Virus record (IMG/VR): IMGVR_UViG_3300048925_000129
Direction: 5' to 3' (one strand)
DNA length: 64,000 bases
Source of the DNA: a virus
Of the stretch, positions 1,231 through 47,593 are shown one piece after another. Numbering within the stretch: position 1 is the stretch's first letter; each line of letters begins with the position of its first letter. Position numbers and translations under genes: made by a program. Below the pieces are notes generated by a model. The model was not told the DNA's origin, made no database searches, and saw nothing but the letters and a program-made list of their open reading frames with translations.

Positions 1231-2961
1231 TTATACTAATTTGTTTACTCGTTCTCTAATTTCAGTTAAACTAACCTGAGAGTGGAACTTACCTTTTGAA
1301 TACAGTACCTTCAGTTCATTATCAACTGCATCTACATCGTCCCAAGTGATTTGATCAATCAACTCTAACTGACCATCTTTGTCAACTACTTTAAGAAGAC
1401 CTTTAGCAGATTTCTTAAGTCCATCATCAGTAATTGGGTCCTTGAAGATTTCAAACCCTACAGTTGTAGGAATTCCAATTCCTCCAGGAAGAGTTTTGTA
1501 CTCAGATCTTTCCACATAAGTTGCTTTCATAGCAAACCCGAAAGTATCTCTGGTGTTGTACTGGTAAGTATAAGAACCAATACCAAATACAACGTTTGTA
1601 GAAGCAAAACCTTTAGCAGCAAGTCGAGCACAAATAGCTTCAGCTCTCTCAGTAGTGATTGAATCTCCATAAATTGCTCCGATGTGTGGATCAAGAACTT
1701 TAAACCCTTGATCATTTACAGTCCCACCAAATACATCCCAAAGTAGCTCTATTACTCCTTTATGTTGAACATGTGGGTGAGCATCAGTTTGTGTAACTCG
1801 AATAATAGATTGTGCATAACGGACATCTACAAAACCATCTTCTACAATTTCTTTTGAGTATTTTTCTCTAACAGCAGTAATAAATTCTGGACCTATTTCT
1901 TTATCAAAGTCTCTCCCACAAAGAATATCAACTGGGTCTCCAGAGTCAGGTCTAATTACTAGTTTACCATCTCTTGCAAGGATTTCCTCTTTCAATGTTG
2001 GTAAAAGGTTTGCACATACATTCCATAAATCCCAAGTATCACTCACTACTGAAAGAATGCCTGTAGGATACGTTTTCAAAAGTCTTCTAAATGTACCAAG
2101 TTCATCTTCTTTAGACCCAGCACACATTACAGAGTGTTCAGTAGCAGGTACAGAACCAGCTAATAACTCAGGCTCATTATAGAAGTGAGCAGCACCCCAC
2201 AAAGTAGGCATAGAATCGGTTCCATAGAAGGAAGTCAAGTGTCCTAGTCCTGAAGCAATTGTAGCATCAACAGAATCTAATCCTCTCATAGAGAAATCAT
2301 GTCCTTGCCAGTTAACAAATTCCATACCATTTTCTACATTGGTTTTTCTTGCCCATTTGGTAAGAATCTTTTTGTAAGCTAAAGCAATTGTAGCTGAAGT
2401 CATCGGTTTCCATAAATATTGACTTAAGATTGATTCCAGGAAGTTCGGCAGCCAGTAGAACTGTGGTAACTCAGGATCATTGTGGATGGTAAGCATTGGT
2501 ACTTTAATAGGACATAGAGTTCCTTCTGCCAGAGATCTAACTTCAATAGGAAGATATCCAGTATCCCAAAGCTCTTCGAAATGATCCATGTTATAAGGAG
2601 CTCCAAAGAATCTTGATAGTTGTTCTCTGATCGGTGCAATAGCAGATTCTTTCAATTGGTTCAATAAACCTTTGTTCATTGTATCTGCAAATCCATTTCC
2701 TGAGTCAATCACAATTTTGTTTCTCTCTTTGGTGAAGAAGAAATTCTCATCAAAATGCTCAACTAATTTCTGAATTGCCATTTGAACTCCGAACACCACA
2801 ACACCATTTAAAGCTTGAACAGCAGCAGGTGCATACTTGTTTCCTCTTGGTGTAAAATTTGAGAACACTAAAGAAGTTCCAATTGGATATTGAGAGTGGT
2901 GGCTTAACTTGTAAGCATCAGTAAGTAAGATTGAGCTAAGTGGATAAGTTTGTCTTGTCAT
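1231..2961 (-). CDS. nadV: Nicotinamide phosphoribosyltransferase family protein (NAMPT/NadV or Namat-like)
   Basis: TDAYKLSH, HDFSMRG, SVPATEHSVM, SVVSDTWD, RPDSGDP, IYGDSIT, FKDPITD, KKSAKG motifs; start moved to MTRQTYP (2961) to avoid overlap with upstream ORF. Confidence 0.93.
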   Translation of the reverse strand: MTRQTYPLSSILLTDAYKLSHHSQYPIGTSLVFSNFTPRGNKYAPAAVQALNGVVVFGVQMAIQKLVEHFDENFFFTKERNKIVIDSGNGFADTMNKGLLNQLKESAIAPIREQLSRFFGAPYNMDHFEELWDTGYLPIEVRSLAEGTLCPIKVPMLTIHNDPELPQFYWLPNFLESILSQYLWKPMTSATIALAYKKILTKWARKTNVENGMEFVNWQGHDFSMRGLDSVDATIASGLGHLTSFYGTDSMPTLWGAAHFYNEPELLAGSVPATEHSVMCAGSKEDELGTFRRLLKTYPTGILSVVSDTWDLWNVCANLLPTLKEEILARDGKLVIRPDSGDPVDILCGRDFDKEIGPEFITAVREKYSKEIVEDGFVDVRYAQSIIRVTQTDAHPHVQHKGVIELLWDVFGGTVNDQGFKVLDPHIGAIYGDSITTERAEAICARLAAKGFASTNVVFGIGSYTYQYNTRDTFGFAMKATYVERSEYKTLPGGIGIPTTVGFEIFKDPITDDGLKKSAKGLLKVVDKDGQLELIDQITWDDVDAVDNELKVLYSKGKFHSQVSLTEIRERVNKLV

Positions 2962-2965
2962 AATT

Positions 2966-3199
2966 TTATTTGTTTTTAATTGTTTGTAATAGTTCTTCAT
3001 TTGTATGATAGAATCCAACCAAAGGAGGGTTCTTTCCAAGCCAGTATTTGTTGTATTTCCAGCAGATGTATCTAATCTGTCCTGCCTCTATTTCTTTCAG
3101 TTTCATGTAGAAATTGGTTTTGGACCAGCCTGTACGTTGATGAAAGAAAGACAGTAATTCTTTGTTTACATCAGTAAACCCTATCTTTGGTATTTCCAT
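2966..3199 (-). CDS. Hypothetical protein, probably on a leaderless mRNA
   Basis: ATG (MEIPKIG) lies 5 nt after the -7 promoter element; the longer ORF-track start falls inside the promoter/terminator. Confidence 0.55.
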   Translation of the reverse strand: MEIPKIGFTDVNKELLSFFHQRTGWSKTNFYMKLKEIEAGQIRYICWKYNKYWLGKNPPLVGFYHTNEELLQTIKNK

Positions 3200-3203
3200 G
3201 ATG

Positions 3204-3260
3204 CAAATGTATGCAAAAAAAATGAGACTCACAAGAGTCTCACTGTTAAAATTTTGTTAA
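3204..3260 (-). promoter_or_regulatory. Fused terminator-promoter: TTAACA-N5-TTAACA box, hairpin with -33 TTG in its loop, U-tract spacer, -7 TACATTTG
   Basis: Minus strand TTAACAAAATTTTAACAGTGAGACTCTTGTGAGTCTCATTTTTTTTGCATACATTTG; 46 bp identical to 40287-40332. Confidence 0.85.
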
Positions 3261-3263
3261 AGT

Positions 3264-4088
3264 TTAAGAATTGAGTAGATCTTCTTTAATTTTATGGACC
3301 AAATCATAATGCATTACTGTCATTTCATTGTTCCAAGCTAAACCCATTTCCTTTAAGTCGTATTGCTTTACGATGGTTCCGTAGTTTTGTAGCTGCCCCT
3401 CAATGGTAGGATATCCTACAACATATATACTGTCAGCTAATTCTACGGCAAGTTCCAGGTCATGGGTAGAGAAGATGATTGTGTTGAATTCATTTTCACT
3501 GGCAATTCTCTTGAAAGCATGTTTAACACTCTCAATGTTACCGACATCCAGTCCACTGAAAGGCTCATCCATAATGATGAAATTCTCAGAGCTGAACATT
3601 TGTTCAAGAATGGCAACCCTTTGTCTCTGTCCTCCCGACAGTTGACTTGGGTATTTGTTCAAATGATCTAACAGTCCCCACTCAGTTACAGAGTCGTTGA
3701 TCTTTTTCAGTTTATCTTCTTTACTAAGCTCTGAATTTCTCAGGGCAAATAGTAAAGCCTCCTTTACCGTTTTGTTTCTGAAGAGTGTGTACTTTTGATT
3801 AACGAAGCCTACATCACCCTCTTCAACGATCTTAGCTTTACTAGGATCACCATGTTCTGGTATAAGGATCGTACCTGTACAAGGTTTTACCAAACCAGTC
3901 AGAACTTTAAAAAGTGTGGACTTACCTCTTCCTGACCTACCAACAATGGCAATAATTTGTCCTGTAATAGTTCCCTCCCGAACAACATCTTTCTCAATCA
4001 TGTTGATGTTCTTGATCACATCTCTTCCATCATATTGTACACTAACGTTTTCTGCATAGAGTACTGTACTTTCTAATTTATAATCCAT
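3264..4088 (-). CDS. ABC transporter ATP-binding subunit (TauB/SsuB-like)
   Basis: Walker A GRSGRGKST, signature LSGGQRQR, Walker B IIMDEPF, H-loop STHD. Confidence 0.95.
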   Translation of the reverse strand: MDYKLESTVLYAENVSVQYDGRDVIKNINMIEKDVVREGTITGQIIAIVGRSGRGKSTLFKVLTGLVKPCTGTILIPEHGDPSKAKIVEEGDVGFVNQKYTLFRNKTVKEALLFALRNSELSKEDKLKKINDSVTEWGLLDHLNKYPSQLSGGQRQRVAILEQMFSSENFIIMDEPFSGLDVGNIESVKHAFKRIASENEFNTIIFSTHDLELAVELADSIYVVGYPTIEGQLQNYGTIVKQYDLKEMGLAWNNEMTVMHYDLVHKIKEDLLNS

Positions 4089-4091
4089 AGT

Positions 4092-4232
4092 TTAATAGTT
4101 TTGAAGTTTGTCGTAAATCAATTTTATTGAATAGTCAGAAATTTGTTCTACTGTTGTCCAGGCTTCATCATAAGCTAGTTTCTTTTTTCTATGATAAGGT
4201 AGACTGTTCCACCATTTGATGTGTGCCTCCAT
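4092..4232 (-). CDS. 46-aa hypothetical protein between permease and ATPase genes
   Basis: Manual translation MEAHIKWWNSLPYHRKKKLAYDEAWTTVEQISDYSIKLIYDKLQNY; fills the intergenic gap exactly. Confidence 0.55.
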   Translation of the reverse strand: MEAHIKWWNSLPYHRKKKLAYDEAWTTVEQISDYSIKLIYDKLQNY

Positions 4233-4234
4233 AG

Positions 4235-5005
4235 TTAAAATGTTGAATAAGTGAATAAACGTTTTCTTAAGAAATTCAATCCAGCATTCAATAGAACACC
4301 TATGAACAGGATAACCAACTGAAGAGCAATGATCTTACTGTGATTCATAAACTTATCTGAGTTTTTGATAAGGAACCCAAGACCCCCAGAAGCTGCCAGG
4401 ATAGACTCAACCGTAACGATCATCATCCATACAATAGCCAAATTCTGTCTGATTACATCAAATAGGTAATCCAACCTTCCTTTAATGACAACTTCCCAAA
4501 GAACTTCCCAACGAGAGCATTTAAGGGTCCTTGCATGATCTATCTCCTCCTCTGGGATATCTTTGATCATTGCAAGTAGAGAAGTGGTTAAATAGGTACT
4601 CATAAAGATTACCAGGACCCACACTTGCATTGTTCTTGCACTCTCGATCATCATGGCTAGATAAAATGTAATTCCAGTAAGTGGTAGAAACCTAAGCTGA
4701 CTTAAAAAAGTTGAAATAGGTTTCAACAGAGGAATTGGAGATAGATAAGCTATGATTGACGAAATGACAATAGAAATAGCAATTGACGAGAAGCATAGTG
4801 ACAAGGAGCTGAATATATGTGGTACTAAACCTTGATGAAGCAGAGCTACAAAACCACTCCCTACACTAGCTATTGAAGGAAACAGGCTTGTACCAGTAGC
4901 ACTGTAAACTGTCCATGTTAGTAAAATTAATAGAAACCATCCTAAGTAGATGAAAGTTTCCTGTCGTTTCGTTGGTGTATTGAATGGTTTTAGTAGCTTT
5001 TTCAT
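4235..5005 (-). CDS. ABC transporter permease (TauC/SsuC-like)
   Basis: About 6 hydrophobic helices, EAA-loop-like EEIDHARTLKCSRWEVLWEVVI, and ESILAASGGLGFLI motif. Confidence 0.9.
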   Translation of the reverse strand: MKKLLKPFNTPTKRQETFIYLGWFLLILLTWTVYSATGTSLFPSIASVGSGFVALLHQGLVPHIFSSLSLCFSSIAISIVISSIIAYLSPIPLLKPISTFLSQLRFLPLTGITFYLAMMIESARTMQVWVLVIFMSTYLTTSLLAMIKDIPEEEIDHARTLKCSRWEVLWEVVIKGRLDYLFDVIRQNLAIVWMMIVTVESILAASGGLGFLIKNSDKFMNHSKIIALQLVILFIGVLLNAGLNFLRKRLFTYSTF

Positions 5006-5006
5006 T

Positions 5007-5435
5007 TTATTTAAAGTTGAATGTTAGACCTGCTGTGATGTAGTTTTTGGTGTTCCAGTTGCTAAATTGCAAATAAGGTGAAACTGGACCGAATGATTTT
5101 GAAACCCCGAAACCGTACTCTAAAAATAGATTGTAGTTATCGAAGTAACTTCCGACTCCTAAAAGAACATAAGGATCAACTTGGTTGAAGTTCAAGGTAT
5201 AGGCAATCTTTCCCTCATACCAGAACTTATCAAAGTTAAGATCATTTGTACCCAGTACTACCCCATAGCTGAAGTTGTTCTTTGTGTACCCTCCTTCTAC
5301 AGAGTAGAATGAAGAATTCTTGAAATCATTGGAATTTGTAACAGATAGCCCTGTTGAAGCATAGAAATTTCCTTTTTCTTGTGAGTAAAGACTCATTGAT
5401 ACCATTGCAAATGCTGCAAGTAATAGTTTTTTCAT
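5007..5435 (-). CDS. Outer-membrane beta-barrel protein (probably 8-stranded)
   Basis: Sec signal peptide, alternating aromatic/Gly strands, C-terminal beta-signal-like AGLTFNFK. Confidence 0.75.
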   Translation of the reverse strand: MKKLLLAAFAMVSMSLYSQEKGNFYASTGLSVTNSNDFKNSSFYSVEGGYTKNNFSYGVVLGTNDLNFDKFWYEGKIAYTLNFNQVDPYVLLGVGSYFDNYNLFLEYGFGVSKSFGPVSPYLQFSNWNTKNYITAGLTFNFK

Positions 5436-5448
5436 ATAATTTTAAATT

Positions 5449-5470
5449 TAAAAGGGGGAATTTCACCCCC
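5449..5470 (-). terminator. Internal intrinsic terminator/attenuator after the SBP-OmpA gene
   Basis: Minus strand GGGGG-TGAAATT-CCCCC followed by TTTT. Confidence 0.6.
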
Positions 5471-5479
5471 ATTGTTGTT

Positions 5480-7294
5480 TTATTTTAAGAAAGTGATTAC
5501 CACTCTTCTATTTTTAGCCTTACCTTCTGCTGTTGTATTGTCAGCTAAAGGCTGAGAGTCTCCTTTTCCAGAAACAGTTTGGAATCTGTTAGCAGGAATT
5601 CCTCTTCTTTGTAGTTCTGCAACTACTGCATTAGCTCTGGACTCAGATAATGACTGATTTGCAGTTGAATTACCAGTGTTATCAGTATGACCAACAACTT
5701 CTAGCTTAGAATCTTCAGCTTGAATTAACAAGTTATAGATTTTTTCAACATCTGCACTAGAACTTGATTTGATATTTGAGCTACCAGTGTCAAAATTAAT
5801 ATTCCATTCCCCAGAAGCCATTACAGTTGAAGCTGATTTTGAATAATCTGCCTTGTAAGCCTGACCACTTTCAACATCATTGATGTTTTTTAGGAAGTAT
5901 AAGTTAACGGCTTGCTCATATGGAGTCACATTTTTAACATTAGCATTGAAATCGAATGGGTTTAGAGTAGTAAGATAGTTAGATACCTGGGTATATACTG
6001 CCTTATACCTGTTTACCCCATCGGTAATACCATAGTACTGCATTGCATCTTGATAATTAAATACCCTAGTTCCACCCATGTTATAAGAGATACCACCTTT
6101 AGATCCTGTTTGACCTTTAAACATGTTATACCAGTACTCAGGAGTTTCTAAGTTGAAAGTCTTAGCTGTAGTCTCAGAAGCAAACTTTCTCCACTCATCA
6201 TACTGCTTCATTTGGTTTGTAGCTGTATACGTAGCCTTTAAAATACCAGAGATAATGTTTGGATTCTTATCAGCAAACTCTTTCACTACAATCAAGGTAG
6301 TTGGCATCTGGTTGTTGAACTCTCTTGTAGAAACGATATCAGTAAATCCTGACAACTTATCAAATACCATCTTGTCTCCAGGAGTCCAAGTAGCACATCC
6401 GTCAACTTTCTTATTGATGGTTTTACCTGTCAATTTACCATCTTTAACCTCTTTCAAAGGAACCGACCATCCAGCAGACTGAGACTTGATTAATTCTTCA
6501 GCAGATTTAGTATAGTCATCATTTTCCGAAGCAACGAAGTTCACAGCTTCAGGATCATAAGTTGTATTATCTGGGTTTACTTTAAGACCGTTAGCAAAAG
6601 CATAGTTCACAGCAATTACCCAGTCACCATCTCCAAGAACGGCAGAGATCAAAGCTCCTTTCATTGATTTTGGATCAGTCTTCCAGTTAAGTGGACCAAT
6701 CAACTTGTCCTCACCATAACTCAACCCTACAGCACCAACGACTTGTACATGATATTTATCCTTTCCGAATTTTTCATCTAAAGCCTGATTCATTGTAGAG
6801 ATGTAATATGGAGCACCATCACCCATGATAATTACACCCAGTGCTGCTTTGTCAGAAGTAGGAACGGCTTTACCACCATTCAACTCTTCTACAAATTTCA
6901 TCTGCATGTTCATAAGTTCTTTAACCCAATCTTGTCTAACTAGAGATAGATTAACGTTATTTTGCTCCATAAGTGATCCTTTTGTAGTCTCAGGACCACC
7001 ATTAGCAGCCGTTACTCCTGACCAACCATTCCAGGCATAACCTGCAATTCTAATCTTTGGTTGAGATTCAACCTTAGAAGAAAGAGAAGTAGATGGAAGA
7101 TCTAACTTTGCAGAAGTCTTCACATTGTCTACACTGTTTCCATCAATTGTAAGACCAGCACTTGTTACTGAATCTTGAACTCTTAATCCTGGAGCAAAGA
7201 AGTATACGGCTCCCAAGATCATAGCTAACCCTACAACGGCAATAAGTGCCTCCGAAAATGTTGTTAGTTTTTTTGATTTAAAAATTTTACCCAT
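5480..7294 (-). CDS. Membrane-anchored ABC substrate-binding protein (PBP2, NMT1/SsuA-like) fused to a C-terminal OmpA peptidoglycan-binding domain
   Basis: N-terminal TM helix; OmpA_C motifs INFDTGSS, GHTD, LSESRANAV, NRRV; central domain with DGCATWTP...VSTREF resembles type II periplasmic binding proteins; adjacent permease and ATPase. Confidence 0.82.
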   Translation of the reverse strand: MGKIFKSKKLTTFSEALIAVVGLAMILGAVYFFAPGLRVQDSVTSAGLTIDGNSVDNVKTSAKLDLPSTSLSSKVESQPKIRIAGYAWNGWSGVTAANGGPETTKGSLMEQNNVNLSLVRQDWVKELMNMQMKFVEELNGGKAVPTSDKAALGVIIMGDGAPYYISTMNQALDEKFGKDKYHVQVVGAVGLSYGEDKLIGPLNWKTDPKSMKGALISAVLGDGDWVIAVNYAFANGLKVNPDNTTYDPEAVNFVASENDDYTKSAEELIKSQSAGWSVPLKEVKDGKLTGKTINKKVDGCATWTPGDKMVFDKLSGFTDIVSTREFNNQMPTTLIVVKEFADKNPNIISGILKATYTATNQMKQYDEWRKFASETTAKTFNLETPEYWYNMFKGQTGSKGGISYNMGGTRVFNYQDAMQYYGITDGVNRYKAVYTQVSNYLTTLNPFDFNANVKNVTPYEQAVNLYFLKNINDVESGQAYKADYSKSASTVMASGEWNINFDTGSSNIKSSSSADVEKIYNLLIQAEDSKLEVVGHTDNTGNSTANQSLSESRANAVVAELQRRGIPANRFQTVSGKGDSQPLADNTTAEGKAKNRRVVITFLK

Positions 7295-7324
7295 TGTTTT
7301 GTAATTTTATCTTTTGTTTGTTTA

Positions 7325-8455
7325 TTAAAATAAGTTCCCGAAACCACCTGATGATTGTTTATCAGATTCGGTCAGCCTGTAATTAGGACTTGAATATTGT
7401 TTAGCTTGAGGAACAACATCTTGTCCACCAGAAATCTTGTTAGCCAAGGTATCTAGTTTGTTGAACATTTCATCATTATCCATGCTGTACTCACTTGTAA
7501 GCTTGTCAATGTCTAAAAGGTTCTCAGAAGTTCTAGCCAAGTCTAATGAAATTGTACTAGTTACAACTTCCATTGCATAATCTAACTGCCAGTCTTTAGT
7601 GAACTGCATGGCTGATTTAGCTGCATCTGTAGCATCTTTCGAGTTCTTAGCAAACTGATAATCTTTCTTCAACATGTCAATTGTTACATCGAAATCTTGG
7701 ATTTTGATATCCATAGCAGTTTCAGCCTTAGAAAGATTTCTATCTAATTTAGCCATAACGTTTGCTCTGGTTCCATATTTCTGAACGAAAGATTTACTTT
7801 GAGCTAATTGATAGTCAAGTCTCTGACCTTCAGATAGTTTCTTCATAAGCTCATTATCAATCTCAGTGATCTCATCTGAGTCTACATAACCTGCTCCATG
7901 CTGCTTAAGTAATTCGTCTCTCTTGTTTCTAAGTTTAAGGCAGTAATTCCTAATCGAGGTAATTCTATCCTGACAATCCTTACTATCTCCCTCACTCTTA
8001 TAAGCTTCACTTTGCATGGTAGTTTTAAGAGCTTTGATTTTAGCCTTAGATTCTTTGAACTTAAGTCTTTGAGCAAGCATCTTAGCTTTCTGATCTTCTA
8101 ATTCACCAAATGGGTCCTCTCTTATCAATGCTTTCTCAGAGTTTTTAGCAAACCTCTTTAATGCTTTTATGATAGTAGGAAATAAGAAGAATAGTCCAAT
8201 TGCTGCTACTCCTGTAGCTGCCAGGGCTAAGAATTGACCTAACATAATCATTACTGGGGGAAGAATATATGTCCAAACTAAATACCCTCCTCCTATGACA
8301 CCAGCCGTAGCTACTGTTCCAAATACAGCCTTACCGACTGGTTTCAACTGTCCCCCACCTTGAGGGTTCAGTACAATCTCCCCATTATCCTTATTAAAGT
8401 GTTGTAAAATAGGATAATTCAATACTTTTTCTTGTACAAAATCTTGTTGTTGCAT
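7325..8455 (-). CDS. Membrane-anchored long coiled-coil protein (PspA/TelA-like architecture)
   Basis: Two N-terminal hydrophobic helices followed by ~270 aa of heptad-rich helical sequence; family assignment is inference. Confidence 0.6.
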   Translation of the reverse strand: MQQQDFVQEKVLNYPILQHFNKDNGEIVLNPQGGGQLKPVGKAVFGTVATAGVIGGGYLVWTYILPPVMIMLGQFLALAATGVAAIGLFFLFPTIIKALKRFAKNSEKALIREDPFGELEDQKAKMLAQRLKFKESKAKIKALKTTMQSEAYKSEGDSKDCQDRITSIRNYCLKLRNKRDELLKQHGAGYVDSDEITEIDNELMKKLSEGQRLDYQLAQSKSFVQKYGTRANVMAKLDRNLSKAETAMDIKIQDFDVTIDMLKKDYQFAKNSKDATDAAKSAMQFTKDWQLDYAMEVVTSTISLDLARTSENLLDIDKLTSEYSMDNDEMFNKLDTLANKISGGQDVVPQAKQYSSPNYRLTESDKQSSGGFGNLF

Positions 8456-8456
8456 A

Positions 8457-9149
8457 TTATTTTAAGTAATTTTTAATGTTATTTGCCACTTCTTCTAATG
8501 AAGAAACTAATTCATTTCTGGCAATTTGGTTTGCTTGAAGTTTCAAATTCACTTCAGATAACATAGGATCATACTGTGAATCTATGTTGCTGAGCTGAGC
8601 TGTCTTTCTTTCTAACTCGGATTGTAACCTTGAAATCTCTGCCTGAGTAGCTTCAATCTCTCCTTTAAGACCCATTTTGCTTTGGTTTTTCTGAGCCTCT
8701 ATTTCAGAAGCCTTTGCTCGACCTGCTGTCTCAAACTGAGTGAACACTTTGTTGATTTCAGTAATGTAGAACTGAGAATCGGAGGACAGACTTTCTGGAG
8801 AAATGCTGGGATTCATTGATTTACCTAATGTGTAAGCCATCTTATATGAATCAGCATTGGTCCCGTTGATAGATTTTATAGACTGGTAATACTCGAAGAA
8901 ATCATATCCTTCTCTGTTAAGGGTGTTGAACCCATTTCTGTAAGTCTCTTGAACCGTTGCTAAGACTGTTGCTAAAGCTCCAGTATCTACCGATACAGAT
9001 GAAGTTGGCATTTCAGTTGGCATACTAGATGGGATATAAGGAGTCCCACTAGACGGCATTGAAGACGGCATTGTTTTAGGAGCTTCTTTTTTAACTTCAG
9101 GTTTTTTATCACCATCGTCTCCTGTTATAAATAAATCTTTGAATCCCAT
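8457..9149 (-). CDS. Coiled-coil protein, first gene of the ABC/OmpA operon
   Basis: GFKDLFI N-terminus, Pro/Ser linker, GYDFFEY motif, C-terminal coiled coil. Confidence 0.7.
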   Translation of the reverse strand: MGFKDLFITGDDGDKKPEVKKEAPKTMPSSMPSSGTPYIPSSMPTEMPTSSVSVDTGALATVLATVQETYRNGFNTLNREGYDFFEYYQSIKSINGTNADSYKMAYTLGKSMNPSISPESLSSDSQFYITEINKVFTQFETAGRAKASEIEAQKNQSKMGLKGEIEATQAEISRLQSELERKTAQLSNIDSQYDPMLSEVNLKLQANQIARNELVSSLEEVANNIKNYLK

Positions 9150-9170
9150 TGTTTAGTAATTTTGATAGTG

Positions 9171-9227
9171 CAAATATATGTCAAATTTTTGAATTATACA
9201 AGTCTTTGACTGTTAAAATTTTGTTAA
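9171..9227 (-). promoter_or_regulatory. Bacteroidota-type promoter with TTAACA direct-repeat box, driving the ABC/OmpA operon
   Basis: -7 TATATTTG (9171-9178), TTG 20 nt upstream, TTAACA at 9211-9216 and 9222-9227. Confidence 0.85.
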
Positions 9228-9427
9228 AGTTCGTCTTCATCATACTCATATCCATCCAAATCAAACTTAACTGAGTCAAGTTTATGATCAGCCCCAGAAA
9301 CATTTAAACGATAATAATCTTTAAGTCTTTCTATGGCTTTAGCAACTGCTTCCTCTTCTGTAACTGCTTCGATATCAAAATCCACATTAAATGATATCTT
9401 CCCCTCTATGTTAAATGTTTTTTTCAT
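9224..9427 (-). CDS. Small acidic hypothetical protein
   Basis: 67 aa, IEAxxEEEA motif common in small phage proteins. Confidence 0.6.
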   Translation of the reverse strand: MKKTFNIEGKISFNVDFDIEAVTEEEAVAKAIERLKDYYRLNVSGADHKLDSVKFDLDGYEYDEDEL

Positions 9428-9942
9428 TGTGCTATTTGTAAAAGTGATTCTATATAGTTAAACATTTCTTTGTACTTCTCATCATAAGCATAAGGCTTCA
9501 TCTTGTCATAGTATTCCATTTTATAGGCACTGAACATCCTAGAGTTGGTAAGAAGGCTGTACTTGACATTGGCTATCAGATCACATAGTTTCACAAATAA
9601 AGCCAGATCATTTTCAGCCAGTTTAATATAAAGCTCAATAGGTTTTCTCTCAGCTCTGTTTCTTCCTTTAAAATCTGTACAAAGGAATACAATTTCTGCC
9701 AGATCATTACCATGCATTTTAACAATGTCGTTATAAGAAAGTCTTCCATCTTCAATTGAATCGTGAGCATAGCAACCAATAAAAGTAATTTCTCTATCAG
9801 CTTTGTTCTTTAACAGGTGCTGAAATTTTGTATGCTGAGCTGCTACAGCATGAAGGTGAAAACTATAAGGCAGAGTATCTGCATATTTTTGGTTAACTTC
9901 TACATCATGGAGATGGATGAAATATTGGATTAAATTTGTCAT
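9424..9942 (-). CDS. HD-domain phosphohydrolase, SpoT/Mesh1-like (p)ppGpp hydrolase family
   Basis: PYSFHL, HDSIED, VKLCDLIAN motifs; start moved to MTNLIQ downstream of the promoter. Confidence 0.8.
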   Translation of the reverse strand: MTNLIQYFIHLHDVEVNQKYADTLPYSFHLHAVAAQHTKFQHLLKNKADREITFIGCYAHDSIEDGRLSYNDIVKMHGNDLAEIVFLCTDFKGRNRAERKPIELYIKLAENDLALFVKLCDLIANVKYSLLTNSRMFSAYKMEYYDKMKPYAYDEKYKEMFNYIESLLQIAQ

Positions 9943-9962
9943 AGTTTTGTATTTTAGTTCTG

Positions 9963-10025
9963 CAAATATATAAAAAATAAAAGACCTATGCAATAGCACA
10001 GGTCTAGTTTAACAAAACTTTAACG
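9963..10025 (-). promoter_or_regulatory. Fused terminator-promoter after nrdA, with the direct-repeat box inverted
   Basis: Hairpin AGACCTGTGC-TATT-GCATAGGTCT plus U-tract; -7 TATATTTG; TTG at 20 nt; TTAACA/TTAACG on the plus strand at 10009 and 10020. Confidence 0.75.
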
Positions 10026-10029
10026 TAAA

Positions 10030-11706
10030 TTAAGCATCACATGAGTCACAAGTAGGACCATATGATTCAGGTTTAGGTTGTACAATATTAGATAAGAGTT
10101 CTTTTGCAACACTCTTACTTCTTTGATAGTATAAGGTTTTAACACCCTTCTTCCAAGCATCAATATAAAGATGGTTAACATCTCTAACCTGCATCTCTGG
10201 AGGAATACTCAGATTTAAACTCTGAGTCTGATCAATAAACTGCTGTCTTAAAGCAGCCTGATCAATTAATGAAAACTGATTAATTTCTTGGAATGTTTTG
10301 AACACGTCTTTTTCATCTTCATCCAGACAATCTAGTCCTTGGACAGAACCATGAGCAAGCATGATCTTTCTCCATGTCTCTTCATTGTCTAATCCTTTTT
10401 CTTGTAGCAATTGCTGAAGGTACTTGTTCTTTCTCATAAAGTTTCCTTTAGCAAGACCTGCTTTATAGTAGTTGGATGTGAATGGCTCGATTCCTGGAGA
10501 AACCTGCCCTAAAATCGAGGAACTCGAAGTTGTTGGAGCAATAGCCATTAGAGTTGTGTTTCTTCTTCCATACCCCTTTAAAAGCTCTGGTTCACCATAT
10601 ATATCTGCAAGCTCTTTGGAAGCTTCTAACGATTCCTTCTGAAGTTGCTTAAAAATGATGGTAGTATAACTAGTTGCAGGAATTCCAGTAAATGGAAGCA
10701 TCTTGCTTTGTAAGAACGAATGCCATCCCATAACACCTAATCCTAAAGCTCTGTGTCTTTTGGCAAACGTGTGAGCTGGTTTCATAAAGGCATTATCCTT
10801 TGTTTTTTCAATGAACTCAGACATTACAGCATCTAGCATCCAGATAGCTAATTTCACAGCATTGGTATCTTTCCATTCATCATATAGTTCCAAATTCATT
10901 GAAGCTAAGCAGCAAACAAATGATTCCTCAAATGTAGATGGTAAAGCAATTTCTGAACACAGGTTAGATGAATTGATTCTTAAACCAAGGTCTTTATAAA
11001 CCTCTGGTTTATTTCTGTTAATGTTGTCAGAAAAGAAAATATAAGGTAATCCCTTTTGTTGTCTGGATTCTAACACTCTAGCCCAAATCTTTCTCTTATC
11101 CATGTCTCCTTCAATCATTTCCTGCATCCAATAATCTGGAACACAAACTCCAGTAAACAAATTCTGGATTGGACTTCCAATATCTTTGATTGCCAGGAAT
11201 TCTTCAATATCACCATGATCAATGTCAAGATAAGCAGCAAAAGCTCCTCTTCTTACTCCACCCTGAGAAACTACATCCATTGTGGTGTCAAATAGTCTCA
11301 TGAATGAAACAGGACCTGAAGACTTACCATTGTCAGTAATTGCTGTTCCTCTTTCTCTTAATTCTCCAAAGTATCCTGAAGTTCCTCCACCTTGTTTAGT
11401 TTGCATGATTACTTCACCACTCTTGGCTGTAATCCCTTCAATTGAATCAGGAACGTGTACATTGAAGCAGGAAATGGGAAGACCTCTTCTTGTTCCCATG
11501 TTAGCCCAGACTGGAGAAGAAAGAGAAACCCAACCTCTCTCAATAACTTCTTTAAACTGGTCCTTTAACTCTGGTCTATACAATTGCTTACACATTGCTG
11601 TAGTAATCCTGTCAATTGCATCATTTATTGTTTCTCCTTTCAAAAGGTAGCCCCTGTTTAGAACCTGCTCAGATTCTTCATTGAACCACCATAGTTTATC
11701 TCTCAT
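10030..11706 (-). CDS. nrdA: Ribonucleotide reductase alpha subunit (short class I, no obvious ATP cone)
   Basis: PISCF, QGGVRRG, SNLCSEI, IAPTTSSS, KTLYY, C-terminal CDSC. Confidence 0.95.
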   Translation of the reverse strand: MRDKLWWFNEESEQVLNRGYLLKGETINDAIDRITTAMCKQLYRPELKDQFKEVIERGWVSLSSPVWANMGTRRGLPISCFNVHVPDSIEGITAKSGEVIMQTKQGGGTSGYFGELRERGTAITDNGKSSGPVSFMRLFDTTMDVVSQGGVRRGAFAAYLDIDHGDIEEFLAIKDIGSPIQNLFTGVCVPDYWMQEMIEGDMDKRKIWARVLESRQQKGLPYIFFSDNINRNKPEVYKDLGLRINSSNLCSEIALPSTFEESFVCCLASMNLELYDEWKDTNAVKLAIWMLDAVMSEFIEKTKDNAFMKPAHTFAKRHRALGLGVMGWHSFLQSKMLPFTGIPATSYTTIIFKQLQKESLEASKELADIYGEPELLKGYGRRNTTLMAIAPTTSSSSILGQVSPGIEPFTSNYYKAGLAKGNFMRKNKYLQQLLQEKGLDNEETWRKIMLAHGSVQGLDCLDEDEKDVFKTFQEINQFSLIDQAALRQQFIDQTQSLNLSIPPEMQVRDVNHLYIDAWKKGVKTLYYQRSKSVAKELLSNIVQPKPESYGPTCDSCDA

Positions 11707-11723
11707 GTATTTTATTTAGTTTA

Positions 11724-12041
11724 TTAAATTAAGTTCTCAGATCTTTTGAAATTTGCCTGAGAATCAGCATCAGCTACAACCAATTGTAATCCAATTAATT
11801 TCTTAACATCCAGACTTCTTTCTACATAGCTGTTTCCTCTAAAGTCGGCTGTGACTGCATAATGTTCAATTCCTTGAAGAGTGGATACAATACAAACTTT
11901 GAACTTAAGTCTTTCTCCTTCATATTCTGTAACTAGATAATCTCCTAGTTTCAGATTTTCTACACTTCCGAAAACTATTCTTGTTCCTCCATCAGTTCTA
12001 GAGGTTGCTACTTGTGCTGCTGTGATTTTTAAATCTTCCAT
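11724..12041 (-). CDS. Hypothetical protein
   Basis: 105 aa ORF between nrdB and nrdA. Confidence 0.6.
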   Translation of the reverse strand: MEDLKITAAQVATSRTDGGTRIVFGSVENLKLGDYLVTEYEGERLKFKVCIVSTLQGIEHYAVTADFRGNSYVERSLDVKKLIGLQLVVADADSQANFKRSENLI

Positions 12042-12052
12042 ATTTTAATTTT

Positions 12053-12379
12053 TTAATGTTTACAATAGATAACTTCAGGTAAAAACCCAAAGACAAATTT
12101 GGTTACATGACATAACCAGATCTCAAAACATAAGATAGAATCGGAGATTTTATACCAACCTCCTTCAGATTCTTCTCTTAAGAATTTTAAGGTGAAAGAT
12201 GGGTCTTCAAACTCTTCTAAAGACATTTTTAGTCTTACTTCATTTTCCCCTTGAGCTAGTATATCTAAGAGAGTATCAGCTCCAGAAACCATTTCCAGTT
12301 CCCACTTTTCTCCTTCCCACTGTGGGTAATCTATGTACCATTTACTATCAGTGTCTTTATAAAATTTGAATATTTCCAT
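12053..12379 (-). CDS. DUF6717-like protein
   Basis: LEMVSGADTLLD and WLCHVTKFVFG..P motifs. Confidence 0.65.
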   Translation of the reverse strand: MEIFKFYKDTDSKWYIDYPQWEGEKWELEMVSGADTLLDILAQGENEVRLKMSLEEFEDPSFTLKFLREESEGGWYKISDSILCFEIWLCHVTKFVFGFLPEVIYCKH

Positions 12380-12510
12380 ACTTTTATTTTTTAGTTAAGC
12401 TTCTGTATCATCGAAGTCTTCATCTTCCTCAGTACAATTACAAATTTCGTACCAATCTAATTCTCTACCACAATTCCAGCAGTAGAAATGATTACCTGCA
12501 AATACTCCCA

Positions 12511-13476
12511 TTAGAATAAATCGTTTGCTGTTATACTCTTATCGTGTTTTGTGTAAGCTGTAGGTCTTTTAGCAAAGAAATCATCCAATTCATTAGCAAA
12601 AACTTCCTCATCAAACCAAGTCATAGGTTTGTATTCCTCAGAAGTTATGTTGAATACCTTTGCAAATTTCATTTGAACTAAAGCCTCATCTATTCTGTGC
12701 TTCATGAAATTAACCATGTCTTTTTTAGAGAAGAAGTCAAGCTCTCCATTTTCATAAATCCAATCTAAAAGTTTCTCCTCATATTGAATGTATTCCTTAA
12801 CAAACTCATGAGTTGACTCTTCCAATCTTTTCAGATAAAGTGGGTCTGAAGCTGATTCTTCTTTTATTTTGTTTAATATGTAGATACCTGCATTTGCATG
12901 TACTTGTTCGTCAATAGAAGTCCAGGCAATGACATTTGAAACATTTTTCATGTACCCTTTAAATTTGGTGAAAGAAAGGATGTTACCAAACTGGCTGAAC
13001 AGAGATGAGTTCTCAATAACAATTGTAAAGAATAATAATTTCTCAACAATGTCTTTGGAGCTCAGGTGTTTTTCAATAACTTCAAGTTTCTCTTGAAAAA
13101 CTGGGTTGTCTTCTACTAGAGTTTTGAACTCATCATTAAAGCCTAAAACTTCAAGTAGTCTGGCATAAGCCTCAGAGTGTCTAAACTCACATTCAGCAAA
13201 TGTACCACCAAGACCATTGAATTCTGGTTTAGGGAATAACTTGTATAAATCTCCCCAGAATGTTTTTACTCCTACCTCAACTTGAGCAATTCCTAAGAGA
13301 CTCCTCTTAACTACCTCTTGCTCCATAGGAGATAAATTTGATTTGAAATCCTGGACATCAGCAGTGAATTCAAGCTCACTGTGAACCCAGAAAGATTTGT
13401 TGATAGCCTCTATAAAGGTCATCACTTCAGGGTATTCAAACGGTTTATAATTTACCCTTTTCTTTAAAATGTTCAT
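12511..13476 (-). CDS. nrdB: Ribonucleotide reductase beta subunit, class Id (NrdBi)-like
   Basis: Ferritin-like ligands with Glu as first ligand in EVGVK, ExxH (EFRH, EQVH), Tyr in HSEAY, C-terminal DFFAKRPTAY. Confidence 0.93.
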   Translation of the reverse strand: MNILKKRVNYKPFEYPEVMTFIEAINKSFWVHSELEFTADVQDFKSNLSPMEQEVVKRSLLGIAQVEVGVKTFWGDLYKLFPKPEFNGLGGTFAECEFRHSEAYARLLEVLGFNDEFKTLVEDNPVFQEKLEVIEKHLSSKDIVEKLLFFTIVIENSSLFSQFGNILSFTKFKGYMKNVSNVIAWTSIDEQVHANAGIYILNKIKEESASDPLYLKRLEESTHEFVKEYIQYEEKLLDWIYENGELDFFSKKDMVNFMKHRIDEALVQMKFAKVFNITSEEYKPMTWFDEEVFANELDDFFAKRPTAYTKHDKSITANDLF

Positions 13477-13508
13477 AAAATTTTTTATATGTTGTTAACT
13501 TAATTAGA

Positions 13509-13546
13509 CAAAAAAGCTCCAGGAAGAGTTGAATTATCCTGAAGCC
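13509..13546 (-). terminator. Terminator-like hairpin in the nrdB leader
   Basis: Minus strand GCTTCAGGA-N-TCCTGGAGC followed by TTTTT, between promoter (13557) and nrdB start (13476). Confidence 0.55.
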
Positions 13547-13556
13547 AAATAAAATG

Positions 13557-13587
13557 CAAAGATACAAAATTTCTCTCTACCATACAA
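13557..13587 (-). promoter_or_regulatory. Bacteroidota-type promoter for nrdB (no TTAACA box)
   Basis: TTG-N20-TATCTTTG. Confidence 0.75.
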
Positions 13588-13604
13588 ATTGTTGATAGAA
13601 AATA

Positions 13605-14201
13605 TTAGTTGTCTAATTTGGAGTTATGAAGTTCTTTACCAGCCACTGAAACTGACTGAATTATAAGCTGTAACGATTTTTCAAAGAACGAATATTTTGT
13701 CTTAACATTACCTAAAATAATTTTTAAGCTTTGTAAATCCCTTCTTATCTTCATGTACCTGTCTTCAATGTTTACAACTTTTTCAGCTTGTGTGATAGAG
13801 ATTCCATCTCTGGTGGATATCTCCTTGACTAACTGTGAGAATAACTCTTTCCTGAAAACCTCATCGAGGAATTCTAATTCATAAATGAACCTATCTCTGA
13901 AGGTGGACAAATAGACCATTTCTTGAGTTATCTCTTTTTTAATCGTCTCTAATAAAGTAAGATTGGCTCCTCCAGGAGTACTGGTGTATCTTTTAATGTT
14001 AGTTTCAATGGAATTTATTAACCTTGTTACAGTTGCCATATCCTCTCTGCTGATACTGGTCGGTAACGAAACCTCGTTAACTCCCTCGATCTTATGTAGG
14101 ATGGTATCTAAAACGGCTGTCAACTCAACATTATCTTTGACTTTTTCTTTGTTGCCCTCAATGAGCATCTTAATTACTCTGTATTCTTCTGAATCGAACA
14201 T
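13605..14201 (-). CDS. Helical hypothetical protein (possibly UvsY-like)
   Basis: 198 aa, helical/coiled-coil pattern; function is a guess. Confidence 0.5.
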   Translation of the reverse strand: MFDSEEYRVIKMLIEGNKEKVKDNVELTAVLDTILHKIEGVNEVSLPTSISREDMATVTRLINSIETNIKRYTSTPGGANLTLLETIKKEITQEMVYLSTFRDRFIYELEFLDEVFRKELFSQLVKEISTRDGISITQAEKVVNIEDRYMKIRRDLQSLKIILGNVKTKYSFFEKSLQLIIQSVSVAGKELHNSKLDN

Positions 14202-14243
14202 ATTGGTTGTTTTAAATACCCCTCCTAAGAGGGGCAGGGATTA

Positions 14244-14630
14244 TTACAGTGTTAAATCTGGTGCATCAGCCTCAGCCTGTGCTTGATCTCTATGGATAGC
14301 CACTTTGCTATCAATCATAGTCATGTGGATCTCGATTGTAGCATTGAAAAGCTCTTCAGCTCTCTTACCTTTTGGAGACACATACATCATTACTTGCTCT
14401 GGCTGCATCTTAGGCATTCCGTTTTCTTCTCTCTCTGGTCCAGTTTCTAATGGAAACTGGTTCAAAAGAATAAGCTCTTTTGTTTCTTCTTGAGCAATAG
14501 CTCCAGCCAACTGCATGTAAGCCATAAATAACCCAGCAGGGATAGTAATCTGAGTGTCTGGTGCATAACCATAATCTAGAGGGTTAGTTACTACTGGTCT
14601 TTCTACTGCTACTTCTTCTTGTTTTGACAT
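14244..14630 (-). CDS. Hypothetical protein
   Basis: 128 aa ORF, followed by a hairpin at ~14219-14235. Confidence 0.6.
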   Translation of the reverse strand: MSKQEEVAVERPVVTNPLDYGYAPDTQITIPAGLFMAYMQLAGAIAQEETKELILLNQFPLETGPEREENGMPKMQPEQVMMYVSPKGKRAEELFNATIEIHMTMIDSKVAIHRDQAQAEADAPDLTL

Positions 14631-21028: not shown

Positions 21029-21086
21029 CAAATATATGTAAAAAAAATGAGACCTGCAATAGGTCTCACTGTTAAAATAATGTTAA
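21029..21086 (-). promoter_or_regulatory. Fused terminator-promoter with TTAACA box
   Basis: Hairpin TGAGACC-TATTGCA-GGTCTCA plus U-tract; -7 TATATTTG; TTAACA at 21070 and 21081. Confidence 0.82.
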
Positions 21087-21088
21087 AA

Positions 21089-29447: not shown

Positions 29448-29533
29448 CAAAGATATATCAAATTTTTGAATCTTGCAACTTTTCCTATGTTAAAATTTTG
29501 TTAAAGTATTTAATAATACTTTACTAAGGATTT
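29448..29533 (-). promoter_or_regulatory. Promoter with TTAACA box and an upstream palindrome
   Basis: TATCTTTG, TTG at 20 nt, TTAACA at 29488 and 29499, inverted repeat TAAAGTATT-N4-AATACTTTA at 29502-29523. Confidence 0.8.
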
Positions 29534-35417: not shown

Positions 35418-35473
35418 CAAAGGTAAGAAAAAGAAATGACATATGCAAATTTAAAATGTTAAAACTTTGTTAA
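35418..35473 (-). promoter_or_regulatory. Promoter with TTAACA box
   Basis: TACCTTTG, TTG at 20 nt, TTAACA at 35457 and 35468. Confidence 0.8.
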
Positions 35474-35478
35474 AGTTA

Positions 35479-40275: not shown

Positions 40276-40332
40276 CAAATATAAATAAAAAAAATGAGAC
40301 TCACAAGAGTCTCACTGTTAAAATTTTGTTAA
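40276..40332 (-). promoter_or_regulatory. Fused terminator-promoter with TTAACA box (copy of 3204-3260)
   Basis: 46-bp perfect repeat of 3215-3260; -7 TATATTTG; stop codon of the upstream gene lies within the box. Confidence 0.85.
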
Positions 40333-40536
40333 TGTTTATCATTGTACGTCCTAAATATTCCATACAAAGCTTTCACAACTAAAATAATAGGGGCTAGTAT
40401 CATATAAAATAGAAACTTTCCTATTTCATTGGTATCACCATCAGAGCCTCTCCATTCTTCCTTATCTTGAACCATAGAAAATGCTCCATATACAACCCAT
40501 AAGGCTGCAATTAAAATGTAAATCATAATGTTTAGT

Positions 40537-47507: not shown

Positions 47508-47593
47508 CAAATATATGTAAAAGTCCTCACATATGCAAGGACTTTTATGTTAAAATCATGTTAAAGTCTTTTATAAAACTTTAGTAAGGATTT
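47508..47593 (-). promoter_or_regulatory. Fused hairpin-promoter with TTAACA box and upstream palindrome
   Basis: AAAAGTCCTTGC-ATAT-GTGAGGACTTTT; TATATTTG; TTAACA at 47548 and 47559; TAAAGT-N10-ACTTTA at 47562-47583. Confidence 0.8.

Follow-up and report, generated by a model that had tools for sequence, protein, structure and literature searches.

Operons that combine membrane-remodelling proteins with a solute transporter have been described in bacteria by comparative genomics only (Ravi et al. 2024, mSystems 9:e00847-23, PMC11237479). They encode PspA, a transmembrane Snf7 protein (TM-Snf7) that is membrane-anchored and divergent, a two-domain AAA+ ATPase, an ABC ATPase, a permease and a PBPB+OmpA protein, and were read as tying membrane remodelling to solute transport. 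For huge phages, a preprint (Yuan & Chen, Oct 2026, bioRxiv 10.64898/2026.10.24.761521) reports 189 PspA genes, 15 of which lie beside complete ABC systems of binding protein, permease and ATPase, together with 1,603 phage β-barrel outer-membrane proteins, and states that transport genes are rarely adjacent to 8-stranded barrels; its authors read these genes as mitigating membrane stress. Here we describe a six-gene envelope cassette from IMG/VR record IMGVR_UViG_3300048925_000129, a 159,132-bp Bacteroidota phage rated 100% complete by CheckV. A stretch of 64,000 nucleotides of this record, called the window below, was analysed, and its positions 3264–9149 are occupied by six open reading frames on the minus strand, the anatomy given in a preliminary description of this DNA. 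They are listed from 5' to 3', with the ratio of nonsynonymous to synonymous substitution rates (dN/dS) measured against a sibling phage.

8457..9149, minus strand: 230-aa (amino acid) soluble coiled-coil protein; no transmembrane segment; no Pfam family; dN/dS 0.068
7325..8455, minus strand: 376-aa membrane-anchored coiled-coil protein; a hydrophobic hairpin, then long helices; dN/dS 0.030
5480..7294, minus strand: 604-aa binding protein; transmembrane segment 9–39, solute-binding domain ~75–480, OmpA domain (PF00691) 501–596; dN/dS 0.037
5007..5435, minus strand: 142-aa candidate outer-membrane β-barrel; signal-peptide-like N-terminus, eight amphipathic strands, ending in ...LTFNFK; dN/dS 0.019
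4235..5005, minus strand: 256-aa type-I ABC importer permease (BPD_transp_1); about six hydrophobic segments; dN/dS 0.034
3264..4088, minus strand: 274-aa ABC ATPase; no transmembrane segment; no regulatory C-terminal domain; dN/dS 0.023

We tentatively read the cassette as a phage-borne, mobile envelope module, in which a coiled-coil scaffold on the cytoplasmic face and an importer pinned to the wall would stabilise the envelope during infection; this is the reading we favour, somewhat short of calling it probable. The likeliest role would be stabilisation of the inner membrane and envelope in infection, coupled to transport. The unit would be transcribed from a phage promoter during infection, and its two coiled-coil proteins would come together at the cytoplasmic side of the host membrane, much as PspA or ESCRT-III do, without a recycling ATPase. 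The wall-pinned importer would move or sense a periplasmic solute, probably a cationic one, while the module, together with the barrel, would maintain the energy state of the inner membrane and hold the layers of the envelope together up to the point of lysis. We favour stabilisation because both coiled coils are kept in essentially every copy, because the binding protein is tethered to the wall, because SPFH/flotillin (Band_7) genes adjoin the cassette in two loci (L063 and L064), and because the bacterial system has an AAA+ partner, as PspA and ESCRT-III systems do. The absence of this AAA+ protein from the phage copies would fit one-way assembly in a cell that is to be lysed. The preliminary description had left the choice between a trans-envelope importer, possibly supplying the adjacent NAMPT operon, and an envelope-stress machine protecting membrane integrity; the second option is now the best reading, and the link to NAMPT has fallen away.

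The cassette proved to be widespread in phages. A scan of IMG/VR with a 13-row alignment returned at least 79 distinct viral loci, on contigs of up to 501 kb. The same five genes are found at 34–62% identity in LR756500, a 462-kb huge phage, and a divergent cassette in LR756501, a 735-kb huge phage. A search of 1.84 billion representatives with the binding domain yielded 374 clusters, nearly all of ~600 aa. Seven divergent clusters were inspected, of which one lay on a contig too short to use and five of the other six on phage-like contigs, marked by many small open reading frames, RNase H, RNA ligase, HNH, Thg1, PNKP, LAGLIDADG, IF3 or NAMPT (the phage-like status of Logan and JGI contigs was judged by gene content alone). 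These occurrences run against the premise, taken as established in the preliminary description, that complete ABC importers are rare in phages. The sixth divergent cluster is L063, on a 1.07-Mb contig labelled Patescibacteria. Its cassette (2759–14501) lies between a Band_7/flotillin gene (535 aa) upstream and an AAA+ ATPase gene (598 aa) downstream, and its OmpA-type wall anchor is unexpected, this lineage being usually thought to be without an outer membrane.

The synteny of the core is kept in 23 bacterial loci, 11 phage loci and the 79 listed IMG/VR loci. Among the latter, the permease is present in 74 and the ATPase in 72, and hidden Markov models detect the 230-aa protein in 60 and the 376-aa protein in 59. 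A divergent 364-aa equivalent lies directly upstream of the binding-protein gene in 17 more loci, and a divergent 242-aa equivalent in 8 more; in the most divergent viral clade these equivalents are still found 5' of the binding-protein gene. A barrel homologue is encoded in 23 of the 79. An AAA+ ATPase or a 166-aa gene, both of which belong to the bacterial operons, occurs within 9 kb of the cassette in 0 of the 79, and neither has a homologue in the complete genome of this phage.

The bacterial counterpart is chromosomal. Relatives of the 604-aa protein with ~70% identity are found in Aquimarina, Maribacter, Cellulophaga, Lacinutrix, Fulvivirga, Marivirga and others, and no bacterial copy exceeds ~71%. 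In Maribacter and Fulvivirga the order is AAA+ ATPase, 166 aa, 228–230 aa, 373 aa, 604 aa, permease and ATPase. The AAA+ ATPase measures 489–501 aa and carries PF00004 and AAA_lid_6, its N-terminal half being without assignment; it is encoded near the core, paired with the 166-aa gene, in 22 of the 23 bacterial loci. By tblastn, the five-gene core is present in every sufficiently long locus of these 23 (two short contigs end within the core). The neighbourhood search across Bacteroidota and phages, proposed at the outset, thus recovered the core on both sides with its coiled-coil genes, which are conserved neighbours in essentially every copy examined. In the binding-protein tree, all bacterial copies except that of Leadbetterella (L025) form one very shallow clade, and Cytophagales are nested in it among Flavobacteriaceae, a pattern that fits horizontal spread and not vertical descent. 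The bacterial operon is rare: a homologue of the 376-aa protein was found in only 3 of 400 further Bacteroidota species sampled. Judged from these sequences, the cassette is common in large phages and far more diverse there than in the shallow bacterial clade. The operon-bearing Maribacter and Fulvivirga genomes also have canonical PspA genes, at other sites.

In 22 aligned loci the core opens with the 230-aa gene, which is conserved in that place. The protein starts with MGFKDLFI, followed by a disordered Pro/Ser-rich linker (~10–55), a helical bundle (56–112) and a long helix (118–229); its AlphaFold model, with a predicted local distance difference test score (pLDDT) of 73, shows disorder over the N-terminal third and a single long helix. 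The start codon of the 376-aa gene lies 1 nt from the stop codon of this upstream gene. The 376-aa protein contains a two-helix hydrophobic hairpin (~44–98; hydropathy stretch 59–100), a basic stretch, a conserved DPFGEL motif, an antiparallel helical hairpin (112–284) and a conserved C-terminal SGGFGxxF, and its AlphaFold model (pLDDT 61) likewise places a transmembrane hairpin before the long antiparallel hairpin at 112–284. By the positive-inside rule, both termini of the 376-aa protein are predicted to be cytoplasmic. Both coiled coils are assigned to the cytoplasm because the stretch after the hairpin is strongly basic and a signal peptide is lacking in the 230-aa protein. The C-terminal SGGFGxxF of the larger protein and the N-terminal (M)GF/NWKxLF of the smaller one are conserved from bacteria to divergent phages; the latter we take to resemble the MG(I/L)F motif of PspA and Vipp1, as a lead only.

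The preliminary description had likened these proteins to PspA, TelA or ESCRT-III. Neither Pfam, nor hhalign, nor fold searches with both predicted structures established this likeness, and homology of the coiled coils to PspA or ESCRT-III is unproven. The 376-aa family has no Pfam family among 23 members or 120 listed database relatives, and a six-frame scan of the complete phage genome gave no PspA match up to E 1. With a 71-row alignment, hhalign placed residues 95–176 of the 376-aa protein on PspA 3–86 (P = 0.001, probability 21%), in a register that starts the PspA N-terminus directly after the transmembrane hairpin and brings DPF onto the EDP motif of PspA; the controls gave 0.002 (230-aa family), 0.47 and 0.27, and the 230-aa family itself aligned to PspA with P = 0.087–0.2. 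The register is suggestive, and its statistics are not significant. Searches of the 376-aa model with Foldseek, VIA-align and the Atlas gave SMC arms, YscO, the PI3K iSH2 domain, PcsB/RipA and Vipp1/PspA with similar scores; Vipp1/PspA are among the top matches, but Vipp1 (Z 10.2) stands among many unrelated hairpins of equal Z. Over both models, the matches were generic helical hairpins or single helices. Searched against the PDB as single sequences and as profiles, both families returned chance coiled-coil matches only, and an Atlas feature search with the 376-aa protein found only unnamed Bacteroidota clusters.

Several of these results, and two from other parts of the cassette, weigh against the stabilisation reading. 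PspA_IM30 (PF04012), Snf7 and TelA had zero Pfam matches up to E 5 in 23 + 22 members of the two families. The PspA score of the 376-aa family barely beats the score between the two coiled-coil families (0.001 vs 0.002), and its fold matches are generic helical hairpins at Z ~10, inside the noise range for helical models; the 230-aa model gave no informative fold match with Foldseek, VIA-align or the Atlas. An eight-stranded barrel is normally no solute channel, which leaves the role of the barrel unexplained. Lastly, the charge proposed for the ligand is drawn from residue composition only.

The binding protein is unlike that of an ordinary importer. The double tether given in the preliminary description, an N-terminal transmembrane segment and a C-terminal OmpA_C domain, is borne out and is unusual: the OmpA part scores 75.3 bits against PF00691 (cut-off 27.2, E 5e-21), and its profile matches OmpA-like domains in the PDB down to E 1e-26. 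The direct NMT1_2 signal in the solute-binding domain is weak (PF13379, E 0.021, residues 294–369, below cut-off). The homologue in LR756501 matches PF13379 at E 7e-10, in addition to OmpA, and a 49-row profile of the solute-binding domain alone aligns colinearly with its NMT1_2 region (pairwise E 1e-7); in the PDB this profile found THI5/THI13 as its only matches (E 0.2–1.3). Because of the THI5/THI13 matches and the colinear alignment, we accept the domain as a divergent NMT1/TauA-type class-II binding domain with large insertions. Its invariant or near-invariant residues comprise seven Asp/Glu and two Trp, with no Lys, Arg or His. The ligand is probably cationic and not anionic, because the invariant pocket residues are acidic and none is basic.

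The transporter itself appears functional. The permease scores 40.4 bits against BPD_transp_1 (PF00528, cut-off 26.4) and is nearest to TauC, NtrB and SsuC in NCBIfam, where its TauC score of 58.7 bits compares with an equivalog cut-off of 342. The ATPase scores 94.2 bits against ABC_tran (PF00005) and falls among many importer ATPases in NCBIfam. Its translation shows Walker A (GRSGRGKST), the Q-loop, the signature (LSGGQRQR), Walker B (IIMDEP) and the H-loop (STHD), so that all five catalytic motifs are intact, as had been noted from the start. Within the cassette, Pfam matches above gathering cut-offs are confined to these two proteins and the OmpA part of the 604-aa protein; the Pfam scan of the window proteins assigned no family to the 230-, 376- and 142-aa proteins.

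These transport features give weight to the main rival, a plain nutrient-acquisition gene set in which the importer would bring in a solute that the phage needs and the coiled coils would only regulate or localise it. Candidate solutes are a pyrimidine (hydroxymethylpyrimidine-like) or NAD precursor, a sulfonate, nitrate, a polyamine or a quaternary amine. The relation of the permease to TauC, NtrB and SsuC, that of the binding domain to NMT1/THI5 and the intact catalytic motifs are all as expected of such an importer, and the cassette has nucleotide and NAD metabolism genes as neighbours (RNR, HD hydrolase and NAMPT). The phage-like contig L064 also encodes NAMPT ~6.6 kb downstream and a phosphoribosyl pyrophosphate (PRPP) synthetase ~7 kb away. 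Against this, the coiled-coil genes, needless for a plain importer, are kept in essentially every copy, a peptidoglycan-pinned binding protein is foreign to known nutrient importers, and no ABC component reaches a substrate-class equivalog cut-off in NCBIfam. The acidic invariant residues would also make anions, such as TauA, SsuA and NrtA bind, unlikely as substrates. The adjacency to NAMPT fails as a functional link because, among the 79 listed IMG/VR loci, NAMPT lies within 9 kb in the sibling phage only and is missing from the other 78; uptake of a precursor for the NAMPT operon, suggested in the preliminary description, was rejected for this reason. We consider a nutrient importer unlikely, and still the alternative that deserves most attention.

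The small candidate barrel sets part of the phage copies apart from the bacterial ones. Its sequence has the traits of a small outer-membrane barrel of the OMP_b-brl, OmpX or PagL kind, from the signal-peptide-like start and the even number of amphipathic strands to the aromatic C-terminal signal, with no Pfam match. In Atlas feature space its neighbours are clusters of outer-membrane β-barrels (0.94–0.96), which we treat as a lead only. Its homologues, in 23 of the 79 listed viral loci, mostly occupy the slot between the binding-protein and permease genes, and they occur in 0 of the 23 bacterial loci; as far as these loci indicate, the barrel is a phage-specific addition to the cassette. The slot is a hotspot, since other phages carry other small open reading frames or MgtC there. 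A tblastn search of the phage collection with the barrel protein gave zero matches.

Phage-encoded outer-membrane proteins are classic exclusion factors, and the barrel therefore counts towards another explanation: a superinfection-exclusion, defence or anti-defence module, in which the barrel and the wall-tethered protein would alter the envelope and block competing phages, the bacterial copies being an accessory defence island. The very patchy bacterial distribution (the 3 of 400 species mentioned above) and the clear horizontal transfer would suit such a module, and the combination of a transmembrane anchor with an OmpA-like domain recalls ZorB. PADLOC, however, gave only domain-level matches (AAA, ABC and MotB) and none to system-specific proteins; the cassette contains no nuclease or other effector, and the barrel is missing from 56 of the 79 listed phage copies and from all bacterial ones. 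We regard exclusion or defence as improbable.

The contact of the binding protein with peptidoglycan also bears on a controller of the FtsEX–PcsB/EnvC type, in which the ABC ATPase would drive a coiled-coil hairpin that switches an amidase and could time lysis. The coiled-coil hairpins of PcsB and RipA are among the fold neighbours of the 376-aa protein, and an AmiA-like gene (PF07313) lies directly 3' of the ABC ATPase in several Flavobacteriaceae (L003, L009, L012, L022, L023 and L027, at ~13530–14620). This neighbour is missing from Cytophagales and from the phage copies, the permease is BPD_transp_1 and not FtsX, and prediction puts the coiled coil in the cytoplasm. With the wrong permease type and the wrong predicted topology, this candidate was rejected as very improbable.

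The cassette is flanked by signals that recur in the phage. The Bacteroidetes promoter consensus consists of TTG at −33 and TAnnTTTG at −7.

9171..9229, minus strand: phage box and Bacteroidota-type promoter-like site; box 9229–9210, TTG 9201–9199, 20-nt spacer, TATATTTG 9178–9171
3213..3262, minus strand: second perfect box and terminator, ending the unit; box 3262–3243, hairpin 3244–3221, 10-bp stem, T-run
3243–3262, 9210–9229, 21069–21088, 29487–29506, 35456–35475, 40315–40334 and 47547–47566, minus strand: copies of CTTTAACAAAATTTTAACAG from the motif count

The first start codon lies 21 nt 3' of TATATTTG, and the cassette terminator overlaps the next promoter-like site, TACATTTG. Terminator-like sites number 11, vs 3.4 expected. 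The 20-nt box CTTTAACAAAATTTTAACAG is present in the window in 7 copies with at most 3 mismatches, always on the minus strand (0.06 expected), and its perfect copies at 9210–9229 and 3243–3262 bracket the cassette exactly. Its copies sit at gene ends, 5' of hairpins and of TAnnTTTG promoter-like motifs, and because of this placement the box looks like a phage-wide signal for transcription-unit boundaries. Both the phage-type promoter and the terminator attributed to the ~6-kb unit were thus located, and the boxes tie the unit to phage regulation.

An assembly chimera, or misjoined host DNA, would account for a binding protein that is 70% identical to bacterial chromosomal proteins. No bacterial copy exceeds ~71%, though, and at least 79 other viral contigs carry the cassette; the perfect flanking boxes, the uniform GC content across the window and the sibling phage, an independent 160,268-bp IMG/VR contig with an identical arrangement and 86–97% amino-acid identity, led us to reject a chimera, to which we attach next to no probability. 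Relative to this sibling, all six genes have dN/dS of 0.019–0.068 at a synonymous divergence (dS) of 0.56–1.10; purifying selection is strong, on the barrel gene as well, and thus preserves all six in the phage lineage. A nucleotide search of the phage collection returned zero matches.

Two further elements lie inside the cassette.

5454..5470, minus strand: GC-rich hairpin (GGGGG–7 nt–CCCCC), followed by a T-rich tail; variable slot, 3' of the binding-protein gene and 5' of the barrel gene
4092..4232, minus strand: 46-aa open reading frame in the 146-nt insertion 4089–4234, between the permease and ATPase genes

The hairpin scores as terminator-like on both strands and may serve to attenuate transcription within the unit or to influence RNA stability. 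The insertion has a short ACTATGGA-like repeat at its boundaries and occurs once in the phage genome; the sibling phage does not have it, its permease and ATPase genes being directly adjacent. Two genes upstream of the cassette, a 191-aa gene (9424–9999, minus strand) matches the metal-dependent phosphohydrolase phrog_990 (E 1e-21) and, weakly, the RelA/SpoT hydrolase region (E 0.003); it may encode a (p)ppGpp or nucleotide hydrolase. In 33 of the 79 listed viral loci, though not in this phage, a small protein with a UvrB/UvrC (UVR) motif (L096:13147–13950) is encoded just 3' of the ABC ATPase and may be another accessory of the cassette. GIY-YIG/NUMOD homing-endonuclease genes (L105:16869–17636) are found near the cassette in 28 of the 79 and may assist its transfer from one genome to another.

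With at least 79 viral contigs, the cassette is among the more widespread multi-gene envelope cassettes of large phages. The contrast between its two forms, AAA+ in bacteria only and a barrel often in phages, provides a clean experimental handle on the cooperation between a PspA/ESCRT-III-like scaffold and a wall-tethered ABC importer, and on the changes that large phages make to the host envelope ahead of lysis. A broader proposal, which we consider speculative and doubtful as a whole, is that large phages infecting Bacteroidota and other diderms equip the host with an envelope-spanning device of their own, made of an outer-membrane barrel, a peptidoglycan-pinned binding protein, an inner-membrane ABC motor and a cytoplasmic ESCRT-III-like scaffold without the recycling ATPase; it would stabilise the envelope mechanically and energetically, or import a cationic solute during a long infection, and the bacterial clade would be a domesticated descendant of the phage radiation. 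If the bacterial copies are phage-derived, they would exemplify the domestication of an envelope machine that evolved in phages.

Among known importers, the transporter resembles the NitT/TauT systems (TauABC, SsuABC, NrtABCD and ThiXYZ) in its permease near TauC/NtrB/SsuC, its NMT1/THI5-related domain and its ATPase class. It differs from them in scores far below the equivalog cut-offs and in its binding protein, which is ~150 residues larger, has family-specific insertions, is transmembrane-anchored and OmpA_C-fused, and has acidic conserved residues unsuited to anions. By these comparisons, the cassette transporter is a distant NitT/TauT relative and not an equivalog. An N-terminal transmembrane segment with a C-terminal OmpA-like domain, fixing an inner-membrane machine to the wall, is shared with MotB/PomB, TolR–Pal, TssL and ZorB; those proteins have a short linker or plug and ion-channel partners, whereas the cassette has a 400-residue solute-binding domain and an ABC transporter. 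Like PspA and Vipp1 (IM30), the 376-aa protein has a long antiparallel helical hairpin, an N-terminal membrane association and a DP motif opening the first long helix, and PspA is in some bacteria paired with an AAA+ ATPase, as the bacterial cassette copies are. Unlike PspA and Vipp1, it has a transmembrane hairpin in place of the amphipathic helix α0, and no significant sequence or fold match joins them.

The preliminary description knew of no characterised function for this gene set; no experimentally characterised function is indeed on record for it, but the set itself is already in the literature, in PMC11237479 and bioRxiv 10.64898/2026.10.24.761521. The likeness to the latter cases would lie in PspA-like genes beside complete ABC systems. 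The present locus differs in having a small barrel inside the ABC cassette (23 of 79 listed viral loci) and in belonging to a phage of 159 kb, vs the 200-kb threshold used there; the OmpA tether, the AAA+-less state and the bacterial counterpart are not mentioned in the text of the preprint that was read.

The closest match is the class of PMC11237479. Both share a soluble and a membrane-anchored coiled coil, a binding protein–OmpA fusion, a permease and an ABC ATPase; the class traits of a protein with a transmembrane segment, binding domain and OmpA domain, and of adjacent permease and ATPase genes, are present here, and the bacterial relatives of the cassette have, like the class, an adjacent AAA+ ATPase. 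The position of TM-Snf7 would be taken by the 376-aa protein, with its transmembrane and helical hairpins, its hhalign P of 0.001 to PspA and no Snf7 Pfam match, and that of PspA by the 230-aa soluble coiled coil (hhalign P = 0.087–0.2, no fold match). The differences lie in the gene order, in the phage copy having a barrel and no AAA+ ATPase, and in coiled coils without a PspA_IM30 or Snf7 match. On gene content and domain composition, membership of the cassette in this class is secure, PspA/Snf7 homology excepted. The phage copy is, on the same grounds, a variant of the class that is reduced, because the AAA+ ATPase is absent from the phage genome and from the 79 listed viral loci, and augmented by its barrel.

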